A stretch of DNA of 64,000 bases from an uncultured Gemmatimonadaceae bacterium (GCA_963716745.1 OY970320.1:2080001-2144000); one strand, 5' to 3'. Counted from the first letter of the stretch, positions 8,338-39,176 are shown. The notes: generated by a model not told the origin, from the sequence alone. A program made the numbers and translations.

Positions 8338-9712
8338 TCAGTAGGCAGCCCCGAAGGCCACTACCGCGATCACCGCGGAGCACATCGCCATCTGTCGCGG
8401 ATCGAGCTTGTCCGGAGTATCCGCGTACGTGTGATGGTACCAGAAGTATTTCGAGTCGTCGGTGTCGAGCGAGAGGGCGGGAACGCCGAGTGCGTTGAGC
8501 GGACCTTCGTCGGCCTCCGACTCGCCTTTGCGCACCGTGGTCACGCCAATGCGCTCGAGTGGCGAGATCACGGTCTTGATCGCCGCGATCACCGTGTCGG
8601 AGCCCGACACGAATACGCCGTGCGGCGTGAACGCGCCGTTGTCGCTCTCCATCGCGAGCACGATATCCTTCACTTCAGCCTTGTGCGCGTCGGCATAGGC
8701 GCGGCCGCCGGCAAGTCCGCTCTCTTCATTCGTCCAGAGCACGACGCGCACCGTGCGGCGCGGGTGCAAGCCGAGCTTCTTGATGAGCTTCACGGCCTGC
8801 CACGCCACGACGCTGCCGGCGCCGTCATCCATCGCGCCCTGGCCCACATCCCACGAATCGATGTGCCCGCCCACGACGATCACCTCGTTCGGCCGCTCGG
8901 AGCCGCGCACTTCGCCTACGACGTTCCGCGATGGTGCGAGGGGCAAATTCCGCGCGCCCATCGTGAGCGTGACCAGCAGTTTCTCGCCGCGCTTCTGCAT
9001 GCGGTGCAGCATCATCGCGTCTTCCACCGTGATCGCGGCGGCGGGGATGCGTTTGGTGCTGTCGCCGTAGTGCAGCGCGCCGGTGTGCGGCGTGCGGAGC
9101 GACATTGGCGTCACCGAGCGCACGAGCACCGCGACCGCGCCGAACTGCATGGCGGAATCCGGGCCCGATCCGCGGTATTGCACGGCGGCGCCGTACGCCT
9201 CGAACGCGGGCTCGCCGGTGGGGAATGGGAAATCGAAGAGCACGATCTTGCCGGCCACATCGTGCGCGTGCGCGCGCAGGTCCTCGAAATCGTTCACCAC
9301 GATCACCGGCGCGGTGATGCCGCCGGCCGGCGTGCCGATGCTGCGCCCCAGTCCCAGCATGTGCAGCGTATCGCGACGCGGCGAGATCAGCACCGCGCTC
9401 TCGGCGCCGCGGTCCCACACCGGCACCATCACGGCTTCCGTGTGCACGTTCTCGAGACCGTCGGCCTTCATCTGTTCCACCATCCAGTCGATGGCGTGTT
9501 CCAGGCGCGCCGAACCGCTCGGCCGATTGCCGAATGTGTCGGCGAGCAATGCGAGCCGTTCCCACGCCGAACTGTCGGCGAGAGCGGCATCGATGAGTTT
9601 GTTCTGCGACGCGCGCGCCGCGGCGTCGGGGACGGGGATGCGCTGCGCGCTGAGCGGACGCGGCGGCGAGCAATGCGGCGAGCGCGATGGCGCATGGTGC
9701 GAATGTCTTCAT
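8338..9712 (-). CDS. M28 family peptidase (carboxypeptidase Q-like) with PA domain; 5' frameshift
   Basis: GGHIDSWDVGQGAMDDG, WTNEE, YHHTYADT; signal peptide MKTFAP... in adjacent frame. Confidence 0.85.
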
Positions 9713-9723
9713 GGCGGCGGAAG

Positions 9724-10371
9724 CTATCCGGCGGTCGCCACGCCGGCCAGCCACTCGCGTGCCGCGTCGATGTCCCCGCGCGTGAGCGTGTGGCCGGCGT
9801 GATCCCATCGCAGTGTGACATTGGCGCCCGCCTCGCGCAGCGCGGTCGCGAGCTTGTCCGTCTCTTCGGGCGGCACGAGCTGATCGCTCAGCCCTGCCGC
9901 GAGGAACACGGGAGTTCCCGGGAGCGCCGACGCACGATGCCCGATGCCCGATGTCCGCGTGACGATCTGCGCGCGGAACATCGCCGCGCCGGCGAATACC
10001 GGGCCCTCGAGCAACAACATCGCGCCGATCATGTTCGCGCCGTTCGAGAATCCGGCGGCGATCACGGACTTCGCGTCGAACCCGTAGTGCGTCGCGGCCG
10101 CCTGCAGGAACGCCGAGACCTCGCGTGCGCGGCGTTCGACGTCGTCGTGATCGAACACGCCTTCAGCCAGCCGGCGGAAGAATCGTGCGGCACCCCCTTC
10201 GCTCACGTTGCCGCGTGGACTCAGCAGTGCGGCGCCGGGCGCCAGCAGGCGGCCCAGCGGGATCAGATCATTCTCGTCGGCGCCCGTGCCGTGGAGCAGG
10301 AGCAATGTCGGCGCGCCCGTCGCGGCCGCCGGCTCATAACGATGGATGTAGCCGAGATCCGCCGTGCTCAC
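9724..10371 (-). CDS. Phospholipase/carboxylesterase (MhqD-like alpha/beta hydrolase)
   Basis: LLHGTG, GFSNGA; GTG start overlaps upstream TGA. Confidence 0.85.
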   Translation of the reverse strand: MSTADLGYIHRYEPAAATGAPTLLLLHGTGADENDLIPLGRLLAPGAALLSPRGNVSEGGAARFFRRLAEGVFDHDDVERRAREVSAFLQAAATHYGFDAKSVIAAGFSNGANMIGAMLLLEGPVFAGAAMFRAQIVTRTSGIGHRASALPGTPVFLAAGLSDQLVPPEETDKLATALREAGANVTLRWDHAGHTLTRGDIDAAREWLAGVATAG

Positions 10372-11315
10372 GGCGCGTGCAGCGGAGGCAGCGACGGTTC
10401 GATGGTCGCGCGCGCCGATTCGAGCCACGGGGGGAGCTTGAGCGCGCTTCCGAGCGTCGCGCGTGGCTCATCGATCAGGAAGCCCGGGATATCGGTCGCG
10501 ATCTCGAAGAGCACGCCACCCGGTTCGTGGAAATAGATCGAATGGAAATACTGGCGGTCGCGCACCGGCGTCACGTGTGCGCCGGCGTCCATGAGCTCGG
10601 CGCGCGACGCCAACTCTGCGTCGTCACCGGGCACGCGCCACGCGACGTGATGCACGGTTCCGATGCCCATCACGCCCTTGGGGAATCCGTGCGTTTCGCG
10701 CACGTCGACGATCGCGCCGGGCCCGCCGCTGCCCGTCACGAATCGCTGCGTGGCGCCCTCGCTGCCACCGGCACGGAACCCCATCGTCGCCGTGAGGAGC
10801 GCGGCGCTGGGAGCGATCGCGTCCACCCACAGCGTGACCGCGTGCATCCCACGGATCGCGTGCTCCGCGGGCACGGTGCTCCCGTCGAACGACCAGGCCG
10901 CGCGCTCCGCGGCGCGCGGATGCGCGACGAGCTCGAGCGCGATGCCATCCCGATCGCGGAACGTGACCACCTGCTCGCCGAAGCGCTTCAGCGGCCCCTC
11001 GTGCGGGACACCGCGCGCGACGAGCCGTTCGAGCCACCACCCGAGGGATCCCTGCGGAATGGAGAGGGAGATGACGTTCACTTGCCCGGTGCCGCCGCGG
11101 CCGCGGCTCGCATCGCCCCATGGGAAGAACGTCACGAGCGTGCTCGGCGCGCCGGTCTCGTCGCCGAAATACAGGTGATACGTACCGGGGTCGTCGAAAT
11201 TCACGGTGCGCTTCACGAGCCGCATGCCGAGCGTACCGGCATAGAAATCCACGGTCCCCTGCGGCGACCCGGAGATCGCCGTGACGTGGTGCAAGCCGCT
11301 GATCGCGATGGGCAT
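10368..11315 (-). CDS. Ring-cleaving dioxygenase (VOC family, MhqO/MhqA-like)
   Basis: GLHHVTAI, KRTVNFDDPGTYHLYFG, DRQYFHSIYFHEPGGVLFEIATD. Confidence 0.92.
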   Translation of the reverse strand: MPIAISGLHHVTAISGSPQGTVDFYAGTLGMRLVKRTVNFDDPGTYHLYFGDETGAPSTLVTFFPWGDASRGRGGTGQVNVISLSIPQGSLGWWLERLVARGVPHEGPLKRFGEQVVTFRDRDGIALELVAHPRAAERAAWSFDGSTVPAEHAIRGMHAVTLWVDAIAPSAALLTATMGFRAGGSEGATQRFVTGSGGPGAIVDVRETHGFPKGVMGIGTVHHVAWRVPGDDAELASRAELMDAGAHVTPVRDRQYFHSIYFHEPGGVLFEIATDIPGFLIDEPRATLGSALKLPPWLESARATIEPSLPPLHAP

Positions 11316-19480: not shown

Positions 19481-19641
19481 GTTGACTCCCGTTCGAATGT
19501 TGCCCTGGGGGTGGACCAAGAAAGTAGCCGGTCCCGGCGCCAGGCGCTCGGCATTCGCGCCGAGAACCGCAGTTTGCGTCCGGAATCGGATAGATTGAAT
19601 ACACGGCACGGCCCAAATTGGCCCCTAACCTGGAGGCCACT

Positions 19642-20755
19642 ATGACATCCGCCGTGCTCGCGATCTTCCCCCCTCGCATCATACCCGACGTGGAATCAGA
19701 CCTGCGCTGGACCGCCGTGATCGCGCGCGATGTCGCCGCCGATGGCGCATTCGTATACGCGGTGCGTTCGACGCACATCTATTGCCGTCCCTCATGCCCG
19801 AGCCGGAAGCCGCGGCGCGAGAACGTCGCGTTCTTCCCGCGCGCCGAAGCCGCCGAGGCGGCCGGCTATCGCGCGTGCCGCCGCTGCCGTCCGGACGAAG
19901 GCGTGCTCAACGAGCTGGAGATCGTCGAGTCGATCTGCCGTGAGATGGAGCGCGACGCGGAGAATACGCCGGAGCTCGCGGAGCTCGCCGCGCGCTCGGG
20001 TCTCGCGCCGCATCGGCTGCAGCGCGCATTCAAGCGCGCCACCGGCATCACGCCGCGCCAATACGCGGAGGCCTGCCGGATGCGCACGCTGCGCGCGAAG
20101 CTCCGTGTCGGCGACGGGATCACGCGCGCGATGTTCGACGCGGGGTTGAGCTCCACCAGCCGGTTGTACGAGCGCGCGCCGCAACAACTCGGGATGACGC
20201 CGGGCAAGTATCGCGCGGGCGCGCCCGGCATGCGGGTCGCCTTCGCGGTGGTGGCGTCGCCACTCGGCCGCCTGCTCGTGGCCGCAACGCCGCGCGGGAT
20301 CTGCGCCGTGAGCCTCGGCTCCGACGACAGCGATCTCGAGCGCGCGCTCGCGCACGAATTCCCCGAGCGCGGAGCGCGTGCGCGATGACAAGGCGCTCGC
20401 GCCTTGGGTGGCCGTGATCCTCAAGCATCTGCGCGGCGAAGAGCCGCACCTCGATCTGCCGCTCGACGTGCGCGCAACGGCATTCCAGCGCCGCGTGTGG
20501 CAGGCGCTGCAGCAGATCCCGTACGGCACCACCCGCACCTACAGCGCGATCGCGAAGGCGATCGGCAAGCCGACGGCCGTTCGCGCCGTGGCTCGGGCGT
20601 GCGCGACGAATCCGGCGTCGCTCGTCATCCCGTGCCACCGCGTGATCCGCGAGGACGGTGCGCTCGGCGGATACCGATGGGGGATCGAGCGGAAGAAACG
20701 GCTGCTGGAGCAAGAGAGCATCGTGCAGCGTGCATCGGGCATCGAACGGACATGA
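19642..20755 (+). CDS. ada: Bifunctional Ada regulator / O6-methylguanine methyltransferase; frameshift near 20370
   Basis: YCRPSC, RACRRC Zn motifs; AraC HTH; IPCHRV. Confidence 0.92.
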
Positions 20756-20794
20756 ACATCCAGTGCAGTCACGATGGCCGAGGCACGATGAACG

Positions 20795-21489
20795 ATGCAC
20801 GCTGACGCCGAGACCCACCTCAAGGAGAGCGATCCGGTACTGCGACGGATCATCGAGCAGGTGGGCCCGTGCACGCTCGAGCCGCACCGGGAATCGACGT
20901 ACTTCCAGTATCTGCTGCGCAGCATCGTCTTCCAGCAGCTCGCGGGCGCGGCGGCGCGCACGATCCACGATCGCGTGATCGCGATCTATGACGGCCGGGC
21001 GCCTGAACCCGAGGACGTGCTCAAGACGCCGCGTGCGAAAGCTGCGCGCCGCTGGGCTCTCGACGCAGAAGGCGAGCTACATTGTGGACCTCGCGCGCCG
21101 CGCCGCGAGCGGCGAGCTGCCGCTGCACACGATGGATTCGCTGACGGATGACGAGGCGATGGCGGCGCTGGTGCAGGTGAAGGGGATCGGGCCGTGGACG
21201 GCGCAAATGTTCCTGATGTTCCGGCTCGGCCGGCCCGACATCCTGCCCGATCTCGATTACGGCGTGAAGCTCGCGATGCGGGTCGCGTACCGCATGCGCA
21301 AGATGCCGAACGCGCGACGCATGCACGCGATCGGTGCCGCCTGGGCACCGCACCGCACCGTGGCCACCTGGTATCTCTGGCGCAGTCTGGATCTGCCCGG
21401 CACGCGCCCGAAGCGGAAGACGGCGAAGAAGCGGCCGAAGGCGAAGAGCGGTCCGCTCGGCGCTCGGCTCCAAGAGGCGGCGAAAGTAG
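20795..21489 (+). CDS. alkA: DNA-3-methyladenine glycosylase II (HhH-GPD); frameshifted
   Basis: SIVFQQL; VKGIGPWTAQM; D-containing HhH-GPD; probable TAG at 21487. Confidence 0.8.
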
Positions 21490-22657
21490 TGTCCGTCCCC
21501 GAGTCCCGAGTCCCGAGTCCCGCATACTTCGTCATCACCGCCCCCGGTTTAGAGGCGATCACCGCCGCCGAGATGACCGCACTGGGTCTGGAGCCCGGGG
21601 CCATCGAGCCCGGCGGCATCAGCTTCGACGGACCGGCGGGCGCGCTCTACCGCGCGAACCTCCATTCTGCGCACCGCGACGCGCGTGATCGCGCGCGTCG
21701 GTGAGTTCGAGGCGCGCCACTTCGCCGATCTCGAGCGCCATGCCAAGGCGCAGCCGTGGTCACGGTGGCTGAGCGCCGCACGCCCCGTGCGGCTGCGCGT
21801 CACGTGCAAGAAGTCGAAGCTCTACCACAGCGGCGCCGTCGCGGAGCGCATCACGACCGCGATCGCGCATGCGCTGGGCCGCGCGCCCGAGACGGCGGGC
21901 GCGAGCGCCGGCGATGATGACGACAGCGGCGATGCGCAGCTCGTGATCGTGCGGCTCCTGCACGATCATTGCACGGTGAGCATGGACAGTTCGGGCGCAC
22001 TGCTGCATCGGCGCGGGTACCGGCTCGCCACGGCGAAGGCGCCGATGCGCGAGACGCTGGCCGCGGCGCTGTTGGCGGCGAGCGGGTGGCCAGGCGACGC
22101 GCCGTTGGTTGATCCGATGTGCGGCTCAGGGACGATCGCGATCGAGGCGGCCATGCTCGCCCGGCGGATGGCGCCGGGCGCCCGCCGTGATTTCGCGTTC
22201 ATGCATTGGCCGGCGTTCGACGCGGCGCTGTGGAAGCGCATGCTCGACAAGGCGCGCGACCGCGAACTCCCGCGCGCGTCCGCTCCCATTCTCGCGTCCG
22301 ATCGCGATGCCGGAGCCATCGCGGCGGCAGAGGCCAACGCCGAGCGTGCGGGCGTTGCCAGCGACGTGCAGATCACGCGCACGGCGCTTTCGGGGATCGT
22401 GCCGCCGGCCTCGGCGCGAGGGTGGCTGATCACCAATCCGCCCTATGGCGTGCGCGTGGGCGACCGCAAGGCGCTGCGCGACCTGTACGCGCAACTCGGG
22501 AATGTCGCGCGGCGATCGTGCGCCGGTTGGACGCATCGCCCTGCTCTCGGCCAGCGTGGAGCTCGAGCGTCAGTTGCAGCTGCCGATGACCGTCGCCGTG
22601 AAGACGCGGAACGGCGGCGTACCAGTGCGGATCGTGACAGGGCAGATACCGGCCTGA
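21489..22657 (+). CDS. THUMP-domain class I SAM RNA methyltransferase (RlmL-like); frameshifted
   Basis: ITAPGLE; DSSG..LHRRGYR; DPMCGSGT; TNPPYG. Confidence 0.85.
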
Positions 22658-22690
22658 TCCCTTCCCACAACAGCCGGTCGATTTGTCCTA

Positions 22691-22719
22691 TAGACGTGCG
22701 CGACCGGTCGTTGTATGCT
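22691..22719 (+). promoter_or_regulatory. Putative sigma70-type promoter for the peptide operon
   Basis: TAGACG-N17-TATGCT with palindrome CGACCGGTCG in the spacer. Confidence 0.45.
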
Positions 22720-22765
22720 CCCTATCCCAACCGGTCAAAAGAACCCGTCCTGCCGGTCAAAAAGC

Positions 22766-22948
22766 ATGCCCTTCGTAGAAGGCACTCCTCCGAGCGAGCA
22801 GTCTCCCGCCGCATCACCGGCGTCGCCGAAGCGCGCATGGACTCCGCCGCGCTGCGAGGAATTGCCGCCGCTCACTGACCTCACCATGCAGCAGGGTTCC
22901 GGCATTCACGGCGGTGGGGGCGGAGGCGGCACGGTCTTTCCGTTCTAG
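22766..22948 (+). CDS. Putative RiPP precursor peptide (60 aa)
   Basis: KRAWTPPRCEELPPLTDLTM leader-like segment followed by QQGSGIHG7TVFPF; heads the rSAM/PqqD operon. Confidence 0.65.
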   Translation: MPFVEGTPPSEQSPAASPASPKRAWTPPRCEELPPLTDLTMQQGSGIHGGGGGGGTVFPF

Positions 22949-22978
22949 CGGGCTTCGTTCACGATCACGGCAGGCACT

Positions 22979-25814
22979 ATGACGCACGCGATCCGCCCGG
23001 CACGTCCTGCCCTGAGATTCCTGGTGCCGCTCGCCGGCGTCGCGGCGCTCTTGTACGGTTGCCAGAGATTCGTTGCCCACCGCAGCGAGCAAGCCGCCGG
23101 TGTATCTGGCGCAGGCGGTGCAGTGCACGGTGAGCGTGGCGCAGCAGAGCATGAGCTGCAGTTCGGGCGAGGCGGCGATCGCTTCGTCGCCGGCGCCGGG
23201 CGCTCGAGGCGGCGCGACGCGAGCATGGCGCGCAGCCAGGGGCGTCCGGTCAGCGAGCGCCGCGCTCGTCGGCCAGTCCGCATAAGTTCGTCACGGTCAC
23301 GTCGCAGAATTTCTTTCACGATGTGGCGGGCGACCGGGTCCTCGCCGACGTGAAGGTGCAGAACCTCACCACCGTCGCGATGGGCTCGAAGGACGGCAGC
23401 ACGTACGATGGCACCGGCGTGAACGTGTTCTTCGATCCGCCGCCCACGGCGCCGGTGACGATCGATAATCCCACCGGCACCAACGGCACGTTCCTCGTCT
23501 CGGGCACGACGTACTTCCAGTATCCGCAGCTCGTGCCCGCCAACGGAACCACCGCGCTTCAGTCGTGGGTATTCGGACTCCACGGCCAGGCGTCGTTCGA
23601 TTTCTTCGTGTATCGTGAGCGCGGCGATGCCGACGGATCCGGACACGGTCGTCATCCCGCCGCACGCATTCCCGGGCATCAGTTCCGGATTCGATCAGAT
23701 CTGCGCGATCCGCGCCGGCAGTCAGGCCTATTGCTGGGGAAACGATTCGCTCGGCCAGTTGGGCGACGGGCGCAGTTCGGACCAGTCCGGTGCCGGTCGC
23801 TGCGCTCGGCGGCCACATTTACAGCTCACTCTCCGCGGGTCCGACGCACGGCTGCGGCATTGAGCAGAGCACCCTCGCAGGATTCTGCTGGGGCTACGAC
23901 TCGCTCGGCGCGCTGGGCGATGGCGGCGCGACGACGCAGAGCGCGCCCACCGCCGTGGCCGGGCAGCTCAGTGGCTCTGCGATCGGCGCCGGCGCGAATC
24001 ACAGCTGCGCGATCGAGTCGGGAACGAACAAGGCATACTGCTGGGGCGACAACGCGCATGGTCAGGTGGGCAAGGGATCGTTGGGCGGGAACGTGACGTC
24101 GCCGACCGTCGTTGTCGGCGGGCACCTGTTCGTCACGGTCGTCTCGGGGCACGATCATTCGTGCGCGCTCACCGCCGCCGGCGCCGCATGGTGCTGGGGC
24201 GCGAACGCCAACATGCAGCTTGGCAACAACGGATTCGCCGATGCGTCGACACCGGTGGCCGTCGGCGGCGGCCATACATGGAAGCAGCTCACCGCGGGCG
24301 GAAACCATGCATGCGGCATTGACAACAGCGACGTCGCATGGTGTTGGGGTTCGGATGCGAGCGGCGAGCTCGGCGATGGGAACTTCGCCGACGAGGGACT
24401 CCCGGTCGCGGTCGACCCGACGGACCTCGGCACGGCGAAGATGATCAGCGCCGGCTCGGACTTCACGTGCGCCGTGGACAAGACGGCGAACGCGAATGGG
24501 TGGTGCTGGGGCGACGGCACTAGCGGGCAACTTGGCGACAACAGCCTTTTCGCGGTACCCAATCCGCAGCTCGTGGACGGCGGTCTCAAGTGGAACTCGA
24601 TCTCCGGCGGTGAGCGGCATACGTGCGGCATTGATAACACGTCGCATGGCTATTGCTGGGGCGCGGGCGACGCTGGTCAGATCGGCGACGGAGTGCCCGG
24701 ATCGACGCAAGCGCCGGGTACGCCCGTGAGCGGCGATACGTACACTGCGCTCGCGGCGGGCGGCGACTTCGCGTGTGGCATGAGCGTCGCGAAGCCGGGA
24801 ACCGGCTGGTGCTGGGGCAGCGCGCAGAAGAGCGCGCTTGGCAACGGGTTCCTCATGACGCAGAGCGCGCCGCTTGGCGTGCTGGGCTTCCATCAATTCA
24901 CTCAGCTCGCGACCGGTCAGAATCACAGCTGCGGGATCGATGTCACGGGCGCCGCATGGTGCTGGGGAGAGAATGACGTGCGACGAACTCGGCACCGGCG
25001 ACGAGACATCGCACAGCATCCCGGCGAAGGTCAGCGGCGGGCATCCTCTATTCGCAGATCAGCGCGATGTTCGTGAGACACCTGTGCGCGGGCCGACCGG
25101 AGCGGGCGACCAACCGACATACTGCTGGGGCAGCAACGGTTTCGGCGAGATCGGCGACGGCACGACGACGAACGCTCCATCGCCGACCGCGCCGGCTGGT
25201 CCGGTAACGACGTTCGCTGCGATCTCGGCCGGGCTGCAGCATACCTGCGCCGTCCAGACCGCCGGTGCCGTCTACTGCTGGGGCGACAATTCGAGCGGCC
25301 AGCTTGGCGACGGTACCAATACTCCGCAACTCCAACCGCAATCTCGTCCCGGGCTTCAGCGGCATCCGCGATCGGCGCCGGATTCTTGTTCACATGCGCG
25401 ACCGAGAGCGGCGGCAGGCCACCATCTCTGGTGCTGGGGCAGCAACAGCAACGGACAACTCGGGATCAACAGCTTCGGCGGTACCAGGACCTCGCCGACG
25501 GTGAGTCGGAGCGCGCGTTCATTCTCGCAGGTCACACTGGGCGCATTCCACGCGTGCGCGTTGGAGCAAGGCACCGGCGAATGCCTATTGCTGGGGATCC
25601 AACAACAAGGGACAGTTGGGCAGTCCGGAAGCTTCAATCAGCAAGACCGTACCCACGCTCGTTGCCGGTGCGGTCACGAGCTTCGTGAGGATCTCGGCGG
25701 GTCGGCAGGATCCCGACCGGATCGCCCATCACCTGCGCCTCGACCGCCGCCGGCGCCTCCTATTGCTGGGGTTCGACGTACGGGAATTCGCCCACGCTGG
25801 TCACGCCGCCATGA
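22979..25814 (+). CDS. Large RCC1/BLIP-II repeat lipoprotein; multiply frameshifted
   Basis: Lipobox LLYGC; 14 (Y/W/F)CWG repeats with GQLGDG and G..H.C motifs. Confidence 0.8.
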
Positions 25815-25846
25815 GCGCCGCCACGATCCTCGCGCGCTAGCTGCAT

Positions 25847-26844
25847 ATGCTCCTTGGCTTCGCGGTCACGCGTCACTGTAATCTTCGTTGTCCCCATTGT
25901 ATTCGGGACGACGTCGTGACGGTCGGCGAACTCAGCGCCGCGCTCATCGGCCGCATCACCGGCGAGGCGAAGGCGCTCTTCGGCGAAGTGAGAGTCAGTC
26001 TCACCGGCGGCGAACCCCTCATCCATCGCGACTTCGCCGGCATCGTCGACGGCACTGCGCGAACGCGCGGTGCCCTGGACGATCGTGACGAACGGCTGGC
26101 ACATTGCGCGCGCGCTTCCGGTGCTCGAGATCGCACCCGCCCGCCGCGGTGCGGCTCTCGCTCTCCGGCGCGAACGAAGCTGTGCATGACGCCGAGCGTG
26201 GCGACGGCTCGTTCCGCCGCGTGCTCTTGGCCGCCGCGATCCTCACGAGCCGCCGGATCCCCTTCTCGCTCGGGATCCTCATCGATCGCCGCGACCGCAG
26301 CGATCTGCGCGAGGCCGCGGATCTCGCGGAGTCGCTCGGCGCGATGAGCCTCCAGGTGCTGTTCGCGCAACCGGTGCCCGCGAGCGCCGCACGCGGCTCC
26401 GATCTCGCACCGCGCGACTGGCAGCAGGTGGTGCGCGAGGTGCGCGCATTGAGCACGGAGTCGCACCGGTGCACTGCCGTCTCGCTCGATTTCGGTGCGC
26501 CGCCCTTTCCGGGTGAAGCGCCGCTCACCTGCGACACGTTCACGCACCGCCGGATCTATGTGAATCACAACGGCGAGCTCTGTCTGTGCTGCCAGCTCTC
26601 GGAGTACGGCGAGATCCCGACCGACGTCGTCGCCGATCTGAACGCCGTGCCGCTCGCGGTCGCGTATGGCGCGTACACGCGTCAACTCGCGGAATTGCGC
26701 CGCGCCGCCGAGCCCGAAGCAGGCGATGCGCTCGCCAAGTTCCCGTGCCTTCGGTGCGCGCGGACGTCGGGCAAACTCGATTGGCTCGCGCGGTTCCCGG
26801 AGAGCCCGTGGCACGATGCCCCCGGCGTGCCCGCCCATGCGTAA
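25847..26844 (+). CDS. Radical SAM enzyme with C-terminal SPASM/twitch-like Cys region; frameshifted near 26050-26100
   Basis: CNLRCPHC, LTGGEP, D..RGDGSF, C...IYVNHNGELCLCC...CLRC. Confidence 0.88.
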
Positions 26845-27959
26845 ACTCGCGTTCGCTCTGTTGCTCCCGTTCCTGCTCGCCTCGTCGTGCGACATTCCGG
26901 GGGTCACCGACACGTCGCCGATGATCGATGTCACCGGGCGCACTGAGCGCGGGACCATAGTGGTGCTGCGCCTGCTCGTCGCCGGCTCGCCCGTCGCCGG
27001 CGCTGCATTCTCGGTCCCTCCGGACGGACACGCGTTCGTCCTGAACGAAGACAGCCTCTTCTTGATACAGCCGGGACCCCTCACGATCGATGCGCGCGGG
27101 CTTCTGGGTGGGGACAGCGTGCACGCCACACGCACGATCACGATCTCCGCGGCACCCACGATCGTGTTCGACGGTCTGGTCGCCGGGAATCGCGACATCT
27201 ACTCGGTAGGGCCTCAATGGCAGTGCGCTCGTGCGCCTCACCACCGATCCGGGCGATGATCGCATGCCCACCGCGCTCGGCGCCACGGTGTACTTCATCA
27301 GTTCGCGCAGCGGTACCGCCGAGCTGTTCACCGTTCCACTCGCAGGCGGCGCGGACGCGCCATTGGCCGCGAGCACGCTCGCGGAGAGTCAGCCGGCCGT
27401 CGCGCCGAGTGGTTCGCATCTCGCGTACGTGGGCACGGATTCGTTCCCGCACATCTATGTCGCCGGCCTCAATGGCGGTGCCGTTACTCGATTCGCGGCG
27501 GCCGACGCAGGATTCTCCGGAGCGCTGGAAGCCAGTCCCACCTGGTCGCCCGCAGGCGATCACATCGCCTACACGACCACGCGTGATGGCGCCGCCGGGA
27601 TCTATACCGGCGCGCTCAACGGCGCCGCGGGAAGCGCGACGCAGCTCGTGAGCGGCGCGCACGGGTACGCGAATGTCGACCCGGCGTGGAATCCGAACGG
27701 ACTCAGCGTCGCCTTCGCATCGAATCGTGACGGTCCAACGGATCTCTACTTGATCACCATCGCGTCGGGTACGGTGACGCGCCTGACGACGCGCGGAAAC
27801 GTGGGACAGCCCGCATGGCTCGCCGACGGCCGGCTGATGTTCACCGAATTCATCTCCGGCGCGAACGGGCTGCGCTGGCTCGACCCCGCGGACACGAGCG
27901 TGATCCACGTCATTCCCACCGGCCCGGGATCGGCCGAGCACGCGTCGGCGGTACCATGA
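26837..27959 (+). CDS. TolB-like PD40 beta-propeller lipoprotein; frameshift near 27215
   Basis: Lipobox LASSC; PTWSPAG, PAWNPNG..VAFASNRDG repeats. Confidence 0.8.
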
Positions 27960-28243
27960 GCGCGAGCCCGATACGGCCGCTCCGGCCCGCCGAGAGTGTG
28001 CTCGTCGCGCATCTCGACGGTGAATCGGTGCTGCTCGATCTCGAGAGCAAGCACTACTATCGCTTGAACGAGAGCGGCTCGGCGATCTGGCGCGCGGTTG
28101 AGTCCGGCGCGGAGCCGCACGCGATCGCCGACGCGCTGGTGTCCGCGTTCAATGTCTCGGAACCCGAGGCGCGCGCGGCCGTCGATGGGCTGCTCGCGGA
28201 TCTGAGCGAGAAAGGATTGCTCGTGCCCAAGGCCGCCGTATGA
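27956..28243 (+). CDS. Stand-alone PqqD family / RiPP recognition element
   Basis: LDGESVLLDL....YYRLNESG..IW...L...F.V....A...V..LL..L...GL; 95 aa. Confidence 0.9.
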   Translation: MSASPIRPLRPAESVLVAHLDGESVLLDLESKHYYRLNESGSAIWRAVESGAEPHAIADALVSAFNVSEPEARAAVDGLLADLSEKGLLVPKAAV

Positions 28244-29190
28244 GCCGCCTGCTCTCGGCGACACCGATCGCACTGGAGGCGGACCGCTTCACGGCATCGC
28301 TGATGCGCGAGATGCTCCCCGCTGTGCGCGAAACCGGTGGTCCAGCGATCGCGGGCCGAGTGCGCGCGCTGCGTTCGGCGGCGGACGCTCCCTCCTCGCC
28401 TGAGCGGGCGCCGACGCTGCGCGTGAGCGGCGTCGCGTTCTGGATCGATGCGCCGCCATCGAGCCGCGTCGCATTTCGAAATGTCAGCGGCTCGGTGCAT
28501 GGATCGATCGACCGCAACTCATCGCGCGCGGAGCTGCGCGTATCGCCGCGCATTGCGGATGACGAGCGCATGGATCCGGGAATCGCGTTCGGAGTGGTGG
28601 TGTCACTCCTGGCGGCGCGCTTGGGCCACGCGCTCGTGCACGCCGCCGGCGTGATCGCACCAAGCGGACGCGCCTGGTTGCTGGTTGGCGACTCCCACTC
28701 AGGAAAGTCGACGACCACTGCGACGCTCATCGCTGGCGGATGGGACTATCTCGGCGATGACTCGGTGGTCCTCTCGCTGGCGCGCGGCGACGCGCCCGGT
28801 GCGCGCGTGCATGTCGAAGGCTGGCGCGTGCCGATCCGCCTCGACCACGGCTCGACGGCCGGTGCGGCGCGCGCCGATCGCGTCGAGGTCGACCCGCACG
28901 CGCTCGGCGGCGGACGGTGGCGCGCATCGGCGCCGCTGGGCGGATTGCTCTTCCCGCGCGTGGATCGCGCGGCGCGCACCACGCTCGCGCCGATCGCGCG
29001 CGCCGATGCCTACGCCGCGCTCGTGCGTCAGAGTCCGTGGCTGCTCGCCGATCCTGTGAGTGCGCCGCGCGTGAGCGACCTGCTCTCGGCGGCGAGCGGC
29101 CATTCCGCCGCGCGCCTCACGCTGGGCGCCGATTGCTATGCGGACGCCGCGCGGATGACCGAGGTGCTCGGCGCGCTGACGGGCCTCTAG
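28240..29190 (+). CDS. HPr kinase-related P-loop protein
   Basis: VHAAGV, Walker A GDSHSGKST, YLGDD. Confidence 0.8.
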   Translation: MSRLLSATPIALEADRFTASLMREMLPAVRETGGPAIAGRVRALRSAADAPSSPERAPTLRVSGVAFWIDAPPSSRVAFRNVSGSVHGSIDRNSSRAELRVSPRIADDERMDPGIAFGVVVSLLAARLGHALVHAAGVIAPSGRAWLLVGDSHSGKSTTTATLIAGGWDYLGDDSVVLSLARGDAPGARVHVEGWRVPIRLDHGSTAGAARADRVEVDPHALGGGRWRASAPLGGLLFPRVDRAARTTLAPIARADAYAALVRQSPWLLADPVSAPRVSDLLSAASGHSAARLTLGADCYADAARMTEVLGALTGL

Positions 29191-29540
29191 TCCGGCAGAA
29201 GCATCGAGAGCACCGTGCTCACGATGCTGATCACGATCGAGCCGATCAGCGCCGGCCCGAATCCGGCGACGTGGAAGCCGAGGCCCAGCGAGCTTGAAAG
29301 CGCACTGGTGAGCATCAGCATCAGAGCGTTGATGACGAGCAGGAAGAGGCCGAGCGAGAGCACGACCACGGGCAGGCTGAGAAGGGTGAGGATGGGGCGG
29401 ACGAAGCCGTTCACGATGCCGAACACGAGCGCCACGCCGGCGAGCGCCAGCACGCTGCCGTCCGTCGAGATGCCGGTCACCCAGCGCGACGCGACCCAGA
29501 GCGCCGCCATGGTGATGAGGATACGAATGACGAGCTTCAT
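29187..29540 (-). CDS. YvlD-like 4-TM membrane protein (phage holin family 4)
   Basis: GIVNGFVRPIL..LSLP..V.SLGLF..VINA. Confidence 0.85.
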   Translation of the reverse strand: MKLVIRILITMAALWVASRWVTGISTDGSVLALAGVALVFGIVNGFVRPILTLLSLPVVVLSLGLFLLVINALMLMLTSALSSSLGLGFHVAGFGPALIGSIVISIVSTVLSMLLPD

Positions 29541-29616
29541 GTCGTGCCTCCGAGTGGTGGGCGAACGGCCGCTCTGCTAATCTGCGCGCGGCGCGGCGAT
29601 CCGGCCACTCGCGCGA

Positions 29617-31344
29617 CTACCAGAGCGTGAAGTGCTGATCGAGCGCGGCCGTGGAATTCGCGCCCGCGACGAGAATGAACCGATCGCCATGATCCACGAC
29701 CAGATCGGGCCGCGGCGCGAGCATGTGGTCGCCGCGCAACACGGTGAGGATCGACGTATCGCTGAGCGCGAGGTGCGCGGACGCGTCGCTGAATGTTTGA
29801 CCCACCAGGGCGCTCGCGGGGCGCAGACTGGCCACGACCAGGCGGCGTCCGCCCGGCAGATCCACCGGGATGCCGGCGCGCAGCTGCGACATCAACTTTC
29901 GCTGCTCCTCGGCTGAGTCGTCGCGGAATCCGCGATCCCGCAGGATCTGCAGCGCGATCTCGAGGTGATGTTCATGGTGCGCCGGAGAGTCGGCGCTGCT
30001 CTCCACCTGAGCTTCGTACATGCTGCGGAACTTCACGTGGCGCGAGAGCCTCCGCTGCACGAGATAGCTGAGGATCACGGCAAGCGTGGCCGGCACGAGC
30101 AGCGTGTATCCGCCCGTCATCTCGGTCACCATCATCATCGTCGCGATAGGCACGTGCGCGGCGCCGGCGAAGACGGCGGCCATCCCGACGACGACGAAGG
30201 GCGCCGCCGGAAGATGCGTGATCGCGGCGAATGCCCCGCCGAGCATGGCGCCCGCGAACAGCGTGGGCGCGAACACGCCGCCGGATCCGCCGGAGCCGAC
30301 GCTCAGGCTCATCGCGATCACCTTGGCGAGCACGAGCAGGGCGAGCACACCGAGCGTCAGCTGGCCGTCGATCGCCTGCTGCATCCATCCGTAGCCGCCG
30401 CCGATCACCTTCGGCACGGCCACTGCCAAGAGTCCCATGAGCAGTCCGCCGATCGCCGGCTTGAGGAAGGGCTTCACCGGCAGGCGCTGGAACCACTGAT
30501 GCGTTCCGTAGAAGATCGCGGGCGTGATGGTGGCGAGGACGCCCGCGGCGACGCCGAGCAGGATGTACCAGCCGTGCTCGAGCGTCCCGGGCACCTGGTC
30601 GGCGAGGTCGGAGAACCGGAAGAGCGGCTGCCAGCCGACGACCATCCCATTCACCGCGTACGCGACGATGGCGCCGAGCGCGGTATAGAGCAGGGCGCCG
30701 GGTTCGAACTCCATGTCGGCGTACAGGATCTCGACGGCGAGCAGCGCCGCGCCGATCGGCGAGCGGAAGATCGCGGAGAGCCCCGCCGCCATGCCGACGA
30801 GCAGCAGGATGCGCCGCTCCTCGCCGGTGCGGCCCGTGAGCGTCGCGTATACGGAGCCGACGCCGCCGGTGATGAGCGCCATCGGTCCCTCGCGTCCCGC
30901 CGACCCGCCCGAGCCGATCGTGATGGCCGACGCGATGAGCTTCACGAACGGGATCCGTGCACGCATCTCGCCGTCGGTGCGGTGGAAGGCGCGTATCACC
31001 GCGTCGGTCCCGTGGCCTTCCGCCTCGGGCGCCAGCCGCGCGGCGAGCACGCCGACGATGAGGCCGCCAAGGGCCGTCGAGACCGGAACCAGCCAGAGTC
31101 CGTGCGGGCCGATGATCTCGACCGGCGACCCGCCTTCGTTCGGCAGGCCCGGCGGGTGGTAGCCGGCGATCCCCCAGAGCATCAGCCGGTCCATCAGGCG
31201 GAGGAACGCCGTGAACATCTGCGCAAAAACCGCGCCGGCGACGCCCAGCGCGATCGTGTCGATCAGCAGGCGCCGCGCGCGCGCATCCACGGAGCGGCCG
31301 GGTGCCACGAAGAGCGCGTCGCGCGAGAGGGCGGGGAGGCGCAC
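29617..31344 (-). CDS. ClC chloride channel/antiporter with C-terminal TrkA-C-like domain
   Basis: GHGTD, GSAGREGP, GGVFAP. Confidence 0.9.
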   Translation of the reverse strand: MRLPALSRDALFVAPGRSVDARARRLLIDTIALGVAGAVFAQMFTAFLRLMDRLMLWGIAGYHPPGLPNEGGSPVEIIGPHGLWLVPVSTALGGLIVGVLAARLAPEAEGHGTDAVIRAFHRTDGEMRARIPFVKLIASAITIGSGGSAGREGPMALITGGVGSVYATLTGRTGEERRILLLVGMAAGLSAIFRSPIGAALLAVEILYADMEFEPGALLYTALGAIVAYAVNGMVVGWQPLFRFSDLADQVPGTLEHGWYILLGVAAGVLATITPAIFYGTHQWFQRLPVKPFLKPAIGGLLMGLLAVAVPKVIGGGYGWMQQAIDGQLTLGVLALLVLAKVIAMSLSVGSGGSGGVFAPTLFAGAMLGGAFAAITHLPAAPFVVVGMAAVFAGAAHVPIATMMMVTEMTGGYTLLVPATLAVILSYLVQRRLSRHVKFRSMYEAQVESSADSPAHHEHHLEIALQILRDRGFRDDSAEEQRKLMSQLRAGIPVDLPGGRRLVVASLRPASALVGQTFSDASAHLALSDTSILTVLRGDHMLAPRPDLVVDHGDRFILVAGANSTAALDQHFTLW

Positions 31345-32558: not shown

Positions 32559-33822
32559 CTACGGCGCCCCGTCCGCGGGAGGCTGCAGTTCCCGCAGTTC
32601 GCGCAGCTCGGGCCACCACCGCGCGACTCCCGCTACCACGAGCAGCGTAGCGATGCCTCCGCCCACTACGCTGATCACCGGCCCGAACAGCGCGGCGGCC
32701 GCGCCCGATTCGAAACCGCCCAGTTGGTTCGACGTGTCGATGAACAGACTGTTCACCGCGCTCACGCGGCCGCGCATCACATCGGGCGTGCGCACCTGCA
32801 CCAGTGTCTGGCGGATCACGACGCTCACCATGTCGAACGCGCCGGCGACGATCATCATCACGAGCGACAACGGATACCAGGTCGAGAACCCGAAGATGAT
32901 CGTCGTCACGCCGAAGCCCGCCACGGCCCAGAGCACGCTGCGCCCCGCGCGTCGCATCGGCCTCCCATGCGCCAGCACGAACGCGATCGCCACGGCGCCG
33001 AGCGCGGGCGCGGCGCGCAGCCATCCGAATCCCGTCGGGCCGACGTGCAGGATGTCCTTCGCGTAAATGGGCAGCAGCGTCATCGCGCCGCCGAAGAGCA
33101 CGGCCAGAAGATCGAGCGTGATCGCGCCGAAGATCACCGGGTCGTGGCGCACGAAGCGGAATCCGGCGAGCAGGGTCTTGGCCGACATCGCCGCGGCGGC
33201 GCGCGGCGCCGCGCGCCCCCGCAGCACCGCCAAACACACCATGAAGCACAGCATGAGCACGGCATCGCACAGGTACACGGGCCCCGCGCGGTGCGCGAGC
33301 GCGATCACCGCGCCGCCGAGCGCCGGACCGATCACGCTCGCCGCCTGCCACCCCGTGCTTCCCCACGTGACCGCGTTCGCGAAGTGCTCGCTCGGCACGA
33401 GCTGCGGCAGCATCGCGGCCGACGCCGGGCGATGGAACGCGAGCGCCACGCCCACCGCGAAGAGGCACACGAACATCAGCCACACCGGCGCCTGCGTGTA
33501 CGAGATCCATGCGAGCGCCAGCGAAGTGAGGATCAGCATCGCGAGCGACAGCATCACGACCTGGCGCCGGTCGAACCGGTCGGCAGCATGTCCCGCGGGC
33601 AGCACCAACAGGAAGATCGGCACCACCTGCACGAGTCCGACCATGCCGAGCGCGAACGCCGAGCCTGTGCGCTCGTACAGTTCCCAGCCGATCGCGACAT
33701 TGAGCATTCTGCGCGCCGATCACGCTCAGGAACCGCCCGCCCAGGAAGAACCGGTAGTCGCGCGATGCGAGCGCGGCGTACGGCCGCGACGCCGCCTCCC
33801 GCTCTTCAGTGGCTCGCGGCAC
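32559..33822 (-). CDS. MFS transporter (EntS/MFS_3-like); 5' frameshift
   Basis: GHAADRFDRR; LDLLAVLFGG; MRGRVSAV. Confidence 0.85.
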
Positions 33823-38978: not shown

Positions 38979-39176
38979 GTTGGCGCACTGTTGAACTAAT
39001 CGCGCCTGCAATTACATTGATTCACAACTGAACCCCGCGGCGATTTGTTGCGATTGCGGCCGCGTTAGAAATCCTGCTAAACCGCTCGCGTGCAGAATGC
39101 ATCTCAGCCCGGGGGCGGTGGTCGCCTGCCGGGCTTCATCACATCCGGCGGGCACTACACTGGAGCCCGTTCCGCC

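Follow-up and report, generated by a model that had tools for sequence, protein, structure and literature searches.

We put at about 70% the probability that a six-gene operon at positions 22766 to 29190 of a 64,000-nucleotide stretch of DNA (the window) from an uncultured Gemmatimonadaceae bacterium (GCA_963716745.1 OY970320.1:2080001-2144000) belongs to a Gemmatimonadota family of peptides made on ribosomes and modified after translation (RiPPs) that derives from kinase-tailored lasso peptide machinery, in which a radical S-adenosylmethionine (radical-SAM) enzyme takes the place of the cyclase and which is linked to lipoproteins and the cell envelope. This conclusion is carried by the identities of the genes, by their conservation and co-occurrence in related genomes, and by the absence of a lasso cyclase. 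The genome of the window is called G000, its coded relatives G001, G002, G004 and so on, and coded loci have L-numbers. The six genes are as follows.

22766..22948, plus strand: precursor peptide gene, 60 amino acids, from ATG 22766 to TAG 22948; no Pfam or NCBIfam match
22979..25814, plus strand: RCC1-repeat beta-propeller lipoprotein (PF00415, 2.4e-33; PF25390, 1e-58), with lipobox LLYGC after ATG 22979 and an N-terminal beta-rich domain that recurs in other lipoproteins of such loci
25847..26844, plus strand: radical-SAM enzyme (PF04055) with a partial SPASM/twitch C-terminus and without an N-terminal RiPP recognition element (RRE)
26837..27959, plus strand: PD40 (TolB-like) beta-propeller lipoprotein (PF07676, 4.3e-19) with an N-terminal Ig-like domain and lipobox LLASSC
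27956..28243, plus strand: stand-alone PqqD-type RRE, lasso B1-like (PF05402, 4.6e-18)
28240..29190, plus strand: HPr-kinase-like P-loop kinase of the "K" type of lasso peptide and linear polyphosphorylated peptide (LPP) systems (partial match to TIGR04352, 1.1e-9)

All six genes, the first a short open reading frame (ORF), lie on one strand, with Pfam or NCBIfam support for five of them. An earlier account of this DNA, made from the sequence alone (the sequence-only reading), had described the same six co-oriented genes; their place, their identities and three overlaps between them held, but three of the genes turned out to be frameshifted in the window as given. The overlaps, of 8 bases (ATGCGTAA) at 26837-44 and of 4 bases (ATGA) at both 27956-59 and 28240-43, indicate that the last four genes are translationally linked. 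The further ATGA that had been pointed out at 25811-14 is present, but it does not start the radical-SAM gene. Its TGA (25812-14) is the true stop of the RCC1 gene, as comparison with G004 showed, and a radical-SAM start at ATG 25811 was rejected because that reading meets a TAG at 25838-40; the gene begins at ATG 25847 (MLLGFAVTRHCNLRCPHC), matching its homologues.

The precursor of the window consists of a leader, W-T-P-P...E-L-P-P-L-T-D-L-T, and a Gly-rich core, QQGSGIHGGGGGGGTVFPF. At least one such peptide was present in 84 of 121 scanned loci, a set that takes in duplicates and kinase-only loci, and 64 unique peptides were obtained. A looser pattern added two further canonical-type peptides (L150 and L153), bringing the unique cores to 66, and also caught the precursors of a divergent branch (L089, L090 and L092). 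The consensus leader was ...[KR]-R-P-W-V-x-P-x-[LV]-T-E-L-P-[RK]-L-T-D-L-T-L and the consensus core, which ran directly to the stop, was Q-T-G-S-P-I-G-G-G-G-x-x-G-G-G-S-T-V-F; in a 33-row alignment W25, P28, L33, P34, L36 to T40, G44, G49, G54, V57 and F58 were invariant. When the conserved Thr was set as position -2, the Trp fell at -17 and the Pro at -14, which is the spacing of the [Y/W]xxPx[L/V/I] motif bound by the RREs of lasso and pyrroloquinoline quinone (PQQ) systems, according to the available part of a recent report (PMC13381572). The stretch following the conserved Thr, counting the residue ahead of the proposed cleavage site, was 14 to 24 residues long and was conserved at both ends. 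Among the 64 peptides the C-terminal endings were TVF (30), TCF (7), SVF (6), VIP (6), VCP (3) and others, those of the window's own genus being GGTVFPF or GGTVFPH. Between G000 and its 91%-identical relative G004 the precursor gene differed at 6 of 183 bases, all of them third codon positions and all synonymous, and the peptide was identical; an ungapped comparison of the 150 bases upstream gave 41 mismatches. Public protein sets held 138 precursor-type clusters, none in a Pfam family, and all the named ones were hypothetical proteins.

The divergent branch (L089:7179-10235, L090 and L092) had, in this order, a radical-SAM gene, a short HPrK-like gene (213 aa), an 81-aa precursor and a TolB-like gene. 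Its radical-SAM proteins were 38 to 44% identical to those of the main family, its precursor carried a long non-Gly core (…DPSTGELLDPNNPADRV…GSTGFFP), and its leader resembled that of a second locus in G000, which is described below.

The gene set was found repeatedly in relatives, the usual order being precursor, radical-SAM gene, one or more large secreted proteins or lipoproteins, TolB-like gene, PqqD, lasso-type B2 peptidase and HPrK-like kinase, with a PF14907 nucleotidyltransferase alongside. In the 20 loci that had full flanks (6 to 8 kb, no less than 6 kb per side) a precursor was present in 19, a TolB-like gene in 17, PqqD in 13, the HPrK-like kinase in 10, B2 in 8 and PF14907 in 7. 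Therefore, the tailoring module is frequent yet can lie elsewhere, and G210 had both arrangements: one locus with peptide, radical-SAM gene and lipoproteins, and another with radical-SAM gene, PqqD, B2, kinase and PF14907. The B2 protein of a relative scored 60.4 bits against the NCBIfam lasso_biosyn_B2 model (cut-off 33). The sequence-only reading had joined the lasso-type leader, PqqD, radical-SAM enzyme and kinase into one peptide-maturation pathway and had looked to conserved synteny and a conserved upstream peptide as its check; the gene set and the small adjacent ORF indeed recur over dozens of genomes, which supports that proposal.

With respect to spread, 401 genomes of the phylum were sampled, and the radical-SAM protein (query from G001) was matched at E<=1e-20 in 28 of them, or in 27 of the 395 of good quality, distributed over the coded families f1 (6/93), f2 (18/166), f7 (1/70) and f8 (2/4). 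The HPrK-like protein was matched in 24 of 61 relatives, a tally that includes a weak match in G012. In a species-representative collection 194 loci encoded a radical-SAM relative, and the best 80 of these bore Gemmatimonadota titles (Gemmatimonadaceae, Gemmatimonadales, Longimicrobium and others) apart from a few unclassified ones ("uncultured bacterium", "bacterium isolate" and "bacterium HR33"); these 80 were metagenome-assembled genomes or bins named as isolates. When 1.84 billion cluster representatives were searched with a profile, 222 radical-SAM clusters were obtained at E<=1e-30. Seven of these, at more than 280 bits, made up the core family; a second tier at about 145 to 250 bits included Myxococcales and Sericytochromatia proteins annotated as generic radical-SAM.

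No lasso cyclase was found in the one-contig genome of G000: its PF00733 matches were an MnmA-like PP-loop protein and matches of the AsnB type, which scored 418 bits with asn_synth_AEB and 212 bits with the lasso cyclase model (cut-off 525). Likewise, no Asn-synthetase-like cyclase was present among 175 ORFs of 15 loci, which came from a picker based on third-position GC content that misses some genes, and tblastn with the AsnB of G000 gave no match in 122 loci totalling 1.39 Mb. The absence of a cyclase noted in the sequence-only reading is thereby extended from the window to the whole genome and the related loci. These searches bear on one alternative, namely, that this is an ordinary lasso cluster with a cyclase that escaped detection or is encoded elsewhere. 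The lasso-type leader with its Thr at -2, the B1-like PqqD, the B2 scoring above the cut-off of the lasso B2 model, and the pairing of a kinase with a nucleotidyltransferase as in paeninodin-type clusters would all fit such a cluster. Lasso rings, however, usually start with Gly, Ala, Ser or Cys and close on an Asp or Glu at about position 7 to 9; the cores found here start with Q, A, I, L, D, V or F, and many of them, such as QTGSPIGGGGAGGSTVF, have no Asp or Glu at all. Together with the missing cyclase, this makes an ordinary lasso cluster highly improbable.

B2 and the nucleotidyltransferase had also been reported absent. They are absent from the window, but they lie in the locus of many relatives and as single copies elsewhere in G000. 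The scan of this chromosome for lasso B2 and C genes gave one orphan B2 but no cyclase. The B2 gene, at 2,965,629-2,966,096 (L025:1363-1830), is about 860 kb away, beside a GGDEF protein, and its product scored 70.3 bits against NF033537 (cut-off 33); in five of five genus relatives B2 was likewise a single copy over the cut-off, away from the locus. The single PF14907 nucleotidyltransferase gene lies at 2,052,580-2,053,651 (L180) and reads in two frames. The chromosome held two HPrK-like genes and two matching PqqDs, the second of each belonging to a locus on the minus strand 40 kb upstream (2,059,521-2,063,104; L180:9521-13104) that has no radical-SAM gene. This second locus encodes a 391-aa ORF with HPrK-like and PqqD domains, a TolB-like lipoprotein, a 463-aa lipoprotein, and a 74-aa peptide, identical in G004, with a related leader of the form R-W-E-T-P-Q-L...S-L-T-V-L-T and a different core that ends in two Cys. 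The orphan B2 and the PF14907 protein probably serve the second locus as well. A third PqqD, small and stand-alone (at about 147,367-147,650, L181; PF05402, 7.7e-12), was judged unrelated, there being no kinase or leader peptide nearby; it adjoins a PQQ-type beta-propeller dehydrogenase and a cytochrome c, and no pqqE-like gene was seen in its vicinity.

The PqqD protein of the window matched the lasso_PqqD models below their cut-offs (NF033530, 3.9e-14 and 52.6 bits against 70; the other model, 49 bits against 80). Its score against PqqD_rel_X was 16.9 bits, the cut-off being 35, and one relative reached 35.1. A predicted complex of PqqD with the precursor scored 0.45, compared with 0.04 for the best of three controls, with the runs agreeing in at least 95% of contacts and a partner predicted local distance difference test score (pLDDT) of at least 53. 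The mark applied to such scores was passed by 116 of 157 solved complexes and by 2 of 215 mismatched pairs; passes at or below 0.60 comprised only 18 of the 157 solved complexes and both of the passing mismatches, so that the prediction is weak support for binding. Moreover, the pass may only mirror likeness to solved RRE-leader complexes.

The radical-SAM protein has its CxxxCxxC motif, CNLRCPHC, at residues 11 to 18 and, since it opens directly with this motif, lacks an N-terminal RRE. A full SPASM set consists of seven Cys; in the C-terminal part of this protein C228, C247, C248, C301 and C304 were invariant and C245 was variable. The nearest solved relatives by sequence were PqqE (6.4e-15) and SkfB, and the predicted model (pLDDT 84.3) gave Foldseek matches to BlsE, SkfB, SuiB, DesII, MoaA, CteB, anSME and PqqE; of these, PqqE, SkfB, SuiB and CteB are maturases of peptides. 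Its best NCBIfam scores all lay under the respective cut-offs (ScmF, 73.9 bits against 400; MftC, 54 to 65 against 265; PqqE, 42 to 47 against 381), and it fell within none of the named NCBIfam equivalogs, among them PqqE, MftC, ScmE/F, StsB and GeoRSP. A second radical-SAM protein, of 512 aa, was seen behind the kinase in the class-level relative G306 (L070:4611-6149, minus strand).

Our best guess for the reaction of this enzyme, held at somewhat less than even odds, is a head-tail cross-link within the core. A cross-link is favored because both core ends are conserved, because the Gly-rich middle varies, and because Cys residues, where present, are always paired. Cys occurred in 16 of the 66 unique cores (L114, L138, L142, L145, L154, L161, L165, L135, L141, L147, L151, L169, L129, L132, L150 and L153), always exactly two and never one. 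In 14 of the 16, one Cys directly followed the conserved I/V-x and its partner was among the final three residues; this second Cys usually stood in place of Val or Phe in the S-T-V-F tail. The paired-Cys label required at least five changes on the enzyme tree, which was built by a quick method with rows of incomplete matches omitted. Since kin share such labels, the pattern is a hint that the two core ends are spatially coupled, not proof.

A different view of the enzyme would make the product a linear phosphopeptide like those of the recently described LPP family of Bacillota, with the kinase defining the modification and the radical-SAM enzyme acting as an accessory, for example as a Val/Ile epimerase, with no ring formed. 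The second locus of G000 speaks for this, having the same type of leader, a kinase, PqqD and a TolB-like gene but no radical-SAM gene, which implies that the kinase module works without that enzyme; the conserved I, V and T residues would also suit epimerization, and LPPs are linear, as the available text of PMC13381572 describes. No pair, however, was as constant as precursor and radical-SAM enzyme (19 of 20 loci), the kinase being adjacent in 10 of 20. Furthermore, the enzyme's best matches (ScmF, StsB, MftC, PqqE and SkfB) are SPASM-type cross-linkers or maturases and not known epimerases. On balance we regard such a linear product as doubtful and retain the reading in which the radical-SAM enzyme stands in for the cyclase.

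The kinase gave a weak and partial match to HprK-related kinase A (TIGR04352, HprK_rel_A; 37.9 bits against a cut-off of 200), and ScmC was not among its NCBIfam matches at E<=0.01. The best solved match of its profile was the HPr kinase/phosphatase 1ko7 (1.3e-4), over the P-loop. Residues H134, G150, G155, K156, D173 and D174 were invariant in the family; the P-loop and the DD motif are thus kept. PEPCK and HPrK/P share one fold, and the predicted model (pLDDT 90.8) matched both in Foldseek. Each of the named matches among the 274 homologues was a hypothetical protein, and most were labelled PF27840 in precomputed annotations. One homologue of 446 aa, P0232, carries PF13471 (B2) and PF27840 (the kinase family) in a single protein, a natural fusion that supports a joint working of B2 and kinase.

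The TolB-like lipoprotein begins with a lipoprotein signal followed by a beta-rich domain, where TolB itself has a TolA-binding domain. Since it scored 93 bits against TIGR02800, below the cut-off of 343, with the PD40 propeller alone matching, it is not a TolB orthologue. A strict heuristic found a lipobox in 23 of 46 TolB-like genes, and several others show one by eye. The other secreted proteins encoded in these operons varied, and comprised RCC1 propellers, a Gemmatimonadota-specific beta-rich N-terminal domain, Big_2, DUF11/CARDB, YadA-head/Peptidase_S74 fibres and tail-collar proteins. In Longimicrobium-type loci (L076:8811-13363, L142:9738-15446, L138:10448-13720 and L111:9122-13842) the RCC1-type lipoproteins are replaced, after the radical-SAM gene, by YadA-head/Peptidase_S74 fibre-like proteins, Big_2/Big_9 giants or phage tail-collar proteins. 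A 484-aa lipoprotein of L067 matched only a Gemmatimonadota "hypothetical protein" cluster in the ESM Atlas (0.97). Polysaccharide-export or capsule-type genes, namely, those for a BexC/KpsE-like chain-length protein, a Wzi-like protein and a group-1 glycosyltransferase, were seen inside or beside some loci (L086:7051-8058, minus strand; L079:487-2232 and 9135-10778), echoing the capsule-locus context that is reported for LPP clusters.

The link to the cell envelope suggested in the sequence-only reading is upheld by the TolB-like lipoproteins in 17 of the 20 full-flank loci; a role there is proposed because lipoproteins constantly accompany the system, which is its sole basis. The same constancy could be taken to mean that a few residues of the peptide, such as the terminal T-V-F, yield a cofactor in the manner of PQQ or mycofactocin, which the periplasmic propeller lipoproteins would use as quinoprotein propellers use PQQ. 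Several features would agree with this: PqqE is the closest solved relative of the radical-SAM enzyme by sequence and MftC is among its best NCBIfam matches, the RRE is discrete as in PqqD/PqqE, and most cores end in V-F, recalling the V-Y with which the mycofactocin precursor ends. The terminus, however, is variable (TVFPF, STVIP, STVCP and STCF), which argues against chemistry on the C-terminal residue, and the companion proteins vary as well (RCC1, Ig-like, YadA-head/S74 fibres) and have no enzyme domains. In addition, no conserved trimming peptidase or oxidoreductase of cofactor pathways was found, and the presence of the kinase, B2 and PF14907 is a hallmark of tailored peptides. A peptide-derived cofactor is therefore considered unlikely.

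As noted above, half of the six genes are interrupted in the sequence of the window. The RCC1 gene is in pieces spread over at least four frames (22979-25814), the radical-SAM gene runs through three frames with single extra bases near 26049 and 26131, and the TolB-like gene occupies two frames with one extra base near 27212. When the 3.6 kb from the radical-SAM gene to the kinase were aligned between G000, G004 (89% DNA identity) and G002, the private single-base insertions numbered 3 in G000 (those near 26049, 26131 and 27212), 2 in G004 and 9 in G002. The second comparison was with contigs from four soil-metagenome runs (X1 to X4), 90 to 99% alike. These contigs lack one base at each of 22533, 23614, 23778, 23979, 25339, 25363, 25410, 25578, 26129/26131 and 27208, and carry an added A behind 23967 in the RCC1 gene; the base at 26129/26131 was missing from contigs of three runs and that at 27208 from one contig. 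The extra base near 26049 is attested by G004 and G002 only, with no contig piece listed there, and the extra bases in the RCC1 gene and the upstream methyltransferase gene are visible against the soil contigs only. In G001, an assembly of 450 contigs, the radical-SAM and TolB-like genes are each open in a single frame. Since close relatives and independent soil contigs lack the extra bases, these are probably assembly errors, and from the alignments we consider it very probable that the frameshifts are assembly indels, decay not being favored.

The private insertions of G000 lie outside homopolymers, and two of the three create or sit in GTCGAC- or GATC-like contexts; the window between 22400 and 29300 and the relatives L013 and L014 all carry private single-base insertions. 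The pattern resembles systematic long-read error, and other genes of G000 are probably affected too. If the frameshifts were instead real, the operon would be the relic of a cluster that has decayed in this strain, as three genes out of frame and a locus lacking B2 and PF14907 might suggest. A relic, however, does not explain why G000, G004 and G002 each have insertions of their own or why the unrelated upstream methyltransferase is also shifted (22533), nor does it agree with the soil contigs, which lack the extra bases at 26129/26131, 27208 and eight sites in the RCC1 and methyltransferase genes. A one-contig genome with a completeness score of 89.8% fits indel errors, and the precursor has changed by synonymous substitution only. 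Decay is accordingly an improbable explanation.

Several points nonetheless weigh against the conclusion that this is a lasso-derived RiPP pathway with an envelope role. The pathway is known from genes alone, from which every chemical step and the envelope role are read. As the three frameshifted genes stand, the pathway could be dead in this strain. Only the precursor and the radical-SAM gene, with the lipoproteins, are near-universal, PqqD, kinase, B2 and PF14907 often lying outside the flank; furthermore, in 14 of 79 distinct radical-SAM loci no precursor could be recognized within the stretch covered. Because no NCBIfam cut-off was reached, the chemistry of the radical-SAM enzyme cannot be read from homology, and the paired Cys could instead form a disulfide or a metal site unrelated to this enzyme. 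The family assignment of the kinase is based on about 70 residues around the P-loop, and with C-termini as varied as TVF, TCF, VIP, VCP and TVFPF the phosphorylated residue cannot be named. Finally, among the 175 ORFs of 15 loci no conserved exporter or ABC-exporter domain was found, which sits badly with a role in the envelope, and no signal-peptidase-like protease was found there either. An MFS_3 transporter gene in the window (32559-33707, minus strand) was rejected as the exporter, not being conserved beside related loci.

With these points in mind, the following pathway is proposed. The stand-alone PqqD would bind the 60-aa precursor at its leader (W-x-x-P-x-[LV]...L-P-x-L-T-x-L-T), as homology and the complex prediction suggest, and would offer the Gly-rich core to the RRE-less radical-SAM enzyme, as PqqD does for PqqE, while also recruiting the kinase and B2. 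The radical-SAM step would be an intramolecular cross-link that ties the head of the core (x-[TS]-G-x-P-I-x-G) to its tail ([ST]-V-F). By analogy with PadeK, PsmK and LppK, the HPrK-like kinase would phosphorylate a conserved Ser or Thr of the core, the candidates being Thr/Ser2 (compare Ser3 of LppA) and the [ST] of S-T-V-F (compare the C-terminal Ser of paeninodin), and the PF14907 nucleotidyltransferase, by analogy with PsmN, might decorate the phosphate. The lasso-type B2 cysteine peptidase would cut off the leader after Thr(-2)-x, and the product would have its role in the cell envelope, alongside the lipoproteins of the operon, both the TolB-like one and the variable beta-rich ones. A bolder version, which we regard as speculative and rather doubtful, has the radical-SAM enzyme take over the topological job of the cyclase by making a Gly-rich ring or hairpin (x-T-G-x-P-I-x-G to S-T-V-F). 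TolB binds the Gly-rich "TolB boxes" of colicins, and the phosphorylated or glycosylated product might be a dedicated, non-antibiotic ligand or anchor that is caught in the periplasm by the TolB-like propeller and fixes or regulates, on the Gemmatimonadota envelope, surface proteins that change from locus to locus, such as the RCC1, Ig-like and YadA-head fibre proteins.

The genes that surround the operon are of other kinds. Upstream lie genes for Ada, Ogt, an AlkA-like protein and an RlmL-like methyltransferase; downstream, on the opposite strand, are those for a holin-like protein, a ClC channel, MarR, OmpA and an MFS (major facilitator superfamily) transporter. Because the neighbors on both flanks are unrelated, the unit was delimited as 22766-29190. 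The adaptive-response DNA-repair cluster directly upstream (19618-21700; Ada Zn-binding/AraC, Ogt and HhH-GPD glycosylase) is not conserved beside related loci. The RlmL/Trm14-like methyltransferase gene (21685-22657) is frameshifted near 22533, and an ORF at 20988-21704 fuses an HhH-GPD (AlkA-like) part with the RlmL N-terminal domain, so that gene borders there are unreliable. A scan of 22300-29700 gave no promoter-like sites; terminator-like sites numbered 3, where 2.7 were expected. Elsewhere in the window a SAM-II riboswitch (SAM_alpha, RF00521) matched at 39027-39101 on the plus strand (42.5 bits; gathering score 36), and no tRNA genes were found across the 64 kb. A known defence system was rejected as an identity for the locus, as PADLOC gave a weak viperin-type radical-SAM similarity (1e-10) alone and the other eight proteins had no match.

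Among known systems, the Bacillota LPPs come closest in composition; they have LppA, LppK, LppB, LppS, LppD and LppN (Popov et al., Nat Commun 2026, PMC13381572). In the available text of that report the HprK-like LppK polyphosphorylates Ser3 of the core, LppB is an RRE, LppS an SpI-like peptidase, LppD MsbA-like and LppN an NTP-transferase; the clusters lie near polysaccharide or envelope genes and are reported only from Bacillota. The same text contains no occurrence of "radical SAM", "rSAM" or "Gemmatimon". The likeness to the present system lies in the HprK-like kinase, the discrete RRE and the NTP-transferase (in G000 encoded outside the window) and in the lack of a cyclase. In contrast, the LPP clusters described there have no radical-SAM enzyme, and they have an SpI/SipW-like peptidase, an MsbA-like exporter and a YxxPxVLxHQxIxFETxxS leader, whereas the family reported here has a radical-SAM enzyme, B2, a WxxPx[LV]xxLPxLTDLT leader, a Gly-rich core and TolB-like and other lipoproteins, with no conserved exporter. 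Since its peptidase, exporter and leader differ in this way, it is not an LPP system as defined.

The phosphorylated and glycosylated lasso peptides (paeninodin with PadeK; pseudomycoidin with PsmK and PsmN; PMC9266682) share with the present family the Thr(-2) leader, the split B1/B2, the HPrK-like kinase and a PF14907-type nucleotidyltransferase. In these pathways, as far as the accessible part of that source goes, K phosphorylates Ser, specifically the C-terminal Ser, N adds hexose, and an Asn-synthetase-like cyclase is needed to make the threaded lactam ring. The leader and B2 are thus of the lasso type here as well, but no cyclase was found and the cores lack ring-forming residues; therefore, the product is not a lasso peptide. 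The PQQ (PqqA/D/E) and mycofactocin (MftA/B/C) systems likewise combine an RRE-less radical-SAM/SPASM-type enzyme with a small discrete PqqD-family protein and a short precursor, but the scores found here are far under the equivalog cut-offs, the precursor is unrelated and the other pathway genes are absent. Two genome-context families, the HPr-rel-A system (TIGR04352/TIGR04353) and the SynChlorMet cassette (ScmD/E/F), join PqqD-like proteins with HprK-like or radical-SAM/SPASM proteins and gave the best yet weak NCBIfam matches, the cut-offs being unreached by the proteins of the window. To our knowledge, neither has been biochemically characterized.

The combination of radical-SAM enzyme, HPrK-like kinase, PqqD and lasso-type features did not occur in the open literature searched, a scope that excludes subscription papers and supplements. 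For Gemmatimonadota, the accessible RiPP and radical-SAM literature consisted only of surveys of biosynthetic gene clusters from Antarctic soil, and surveys of lasso peptides in this phylum, in the part available, only count antiSMASH lasso calls (PMC11316326). The sequence-only reading had called the system undescribed. This agrees with the searches made, but a cyclase-less family with kinase, RRE and nucleotidyltransferase, the LPPs, was published in 2026 (PMC13381572). The system appears to be a conserved variant of kinase-tailored RiPP pathways that is undescribed within the literature searched, and it shows how such pathways may be rebuilt from modules: the leader of tailored lasso peptides, the RRE, B2, the kinase and the nucleotidyltransferase would be kept, and the class-defining cyclase swapped for a radical-SAM enzyme. 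The 64 natural variants with their sharply conserved ends form a defined substrate family, through which a radical-SAM reaction on Gly-rich peptides that may be new could be reached. That TolB-like and other envelope lipoproteins constantly accompany the system points towards a cell-surface role rather than, or besides, antibiosis, a role also raised for the related Bacillota systems. Compared with those systems, the family described here would extend the idea of the cyclase-less LPP from the Bacillota to a diderm, mostly uncultured soil phylum.

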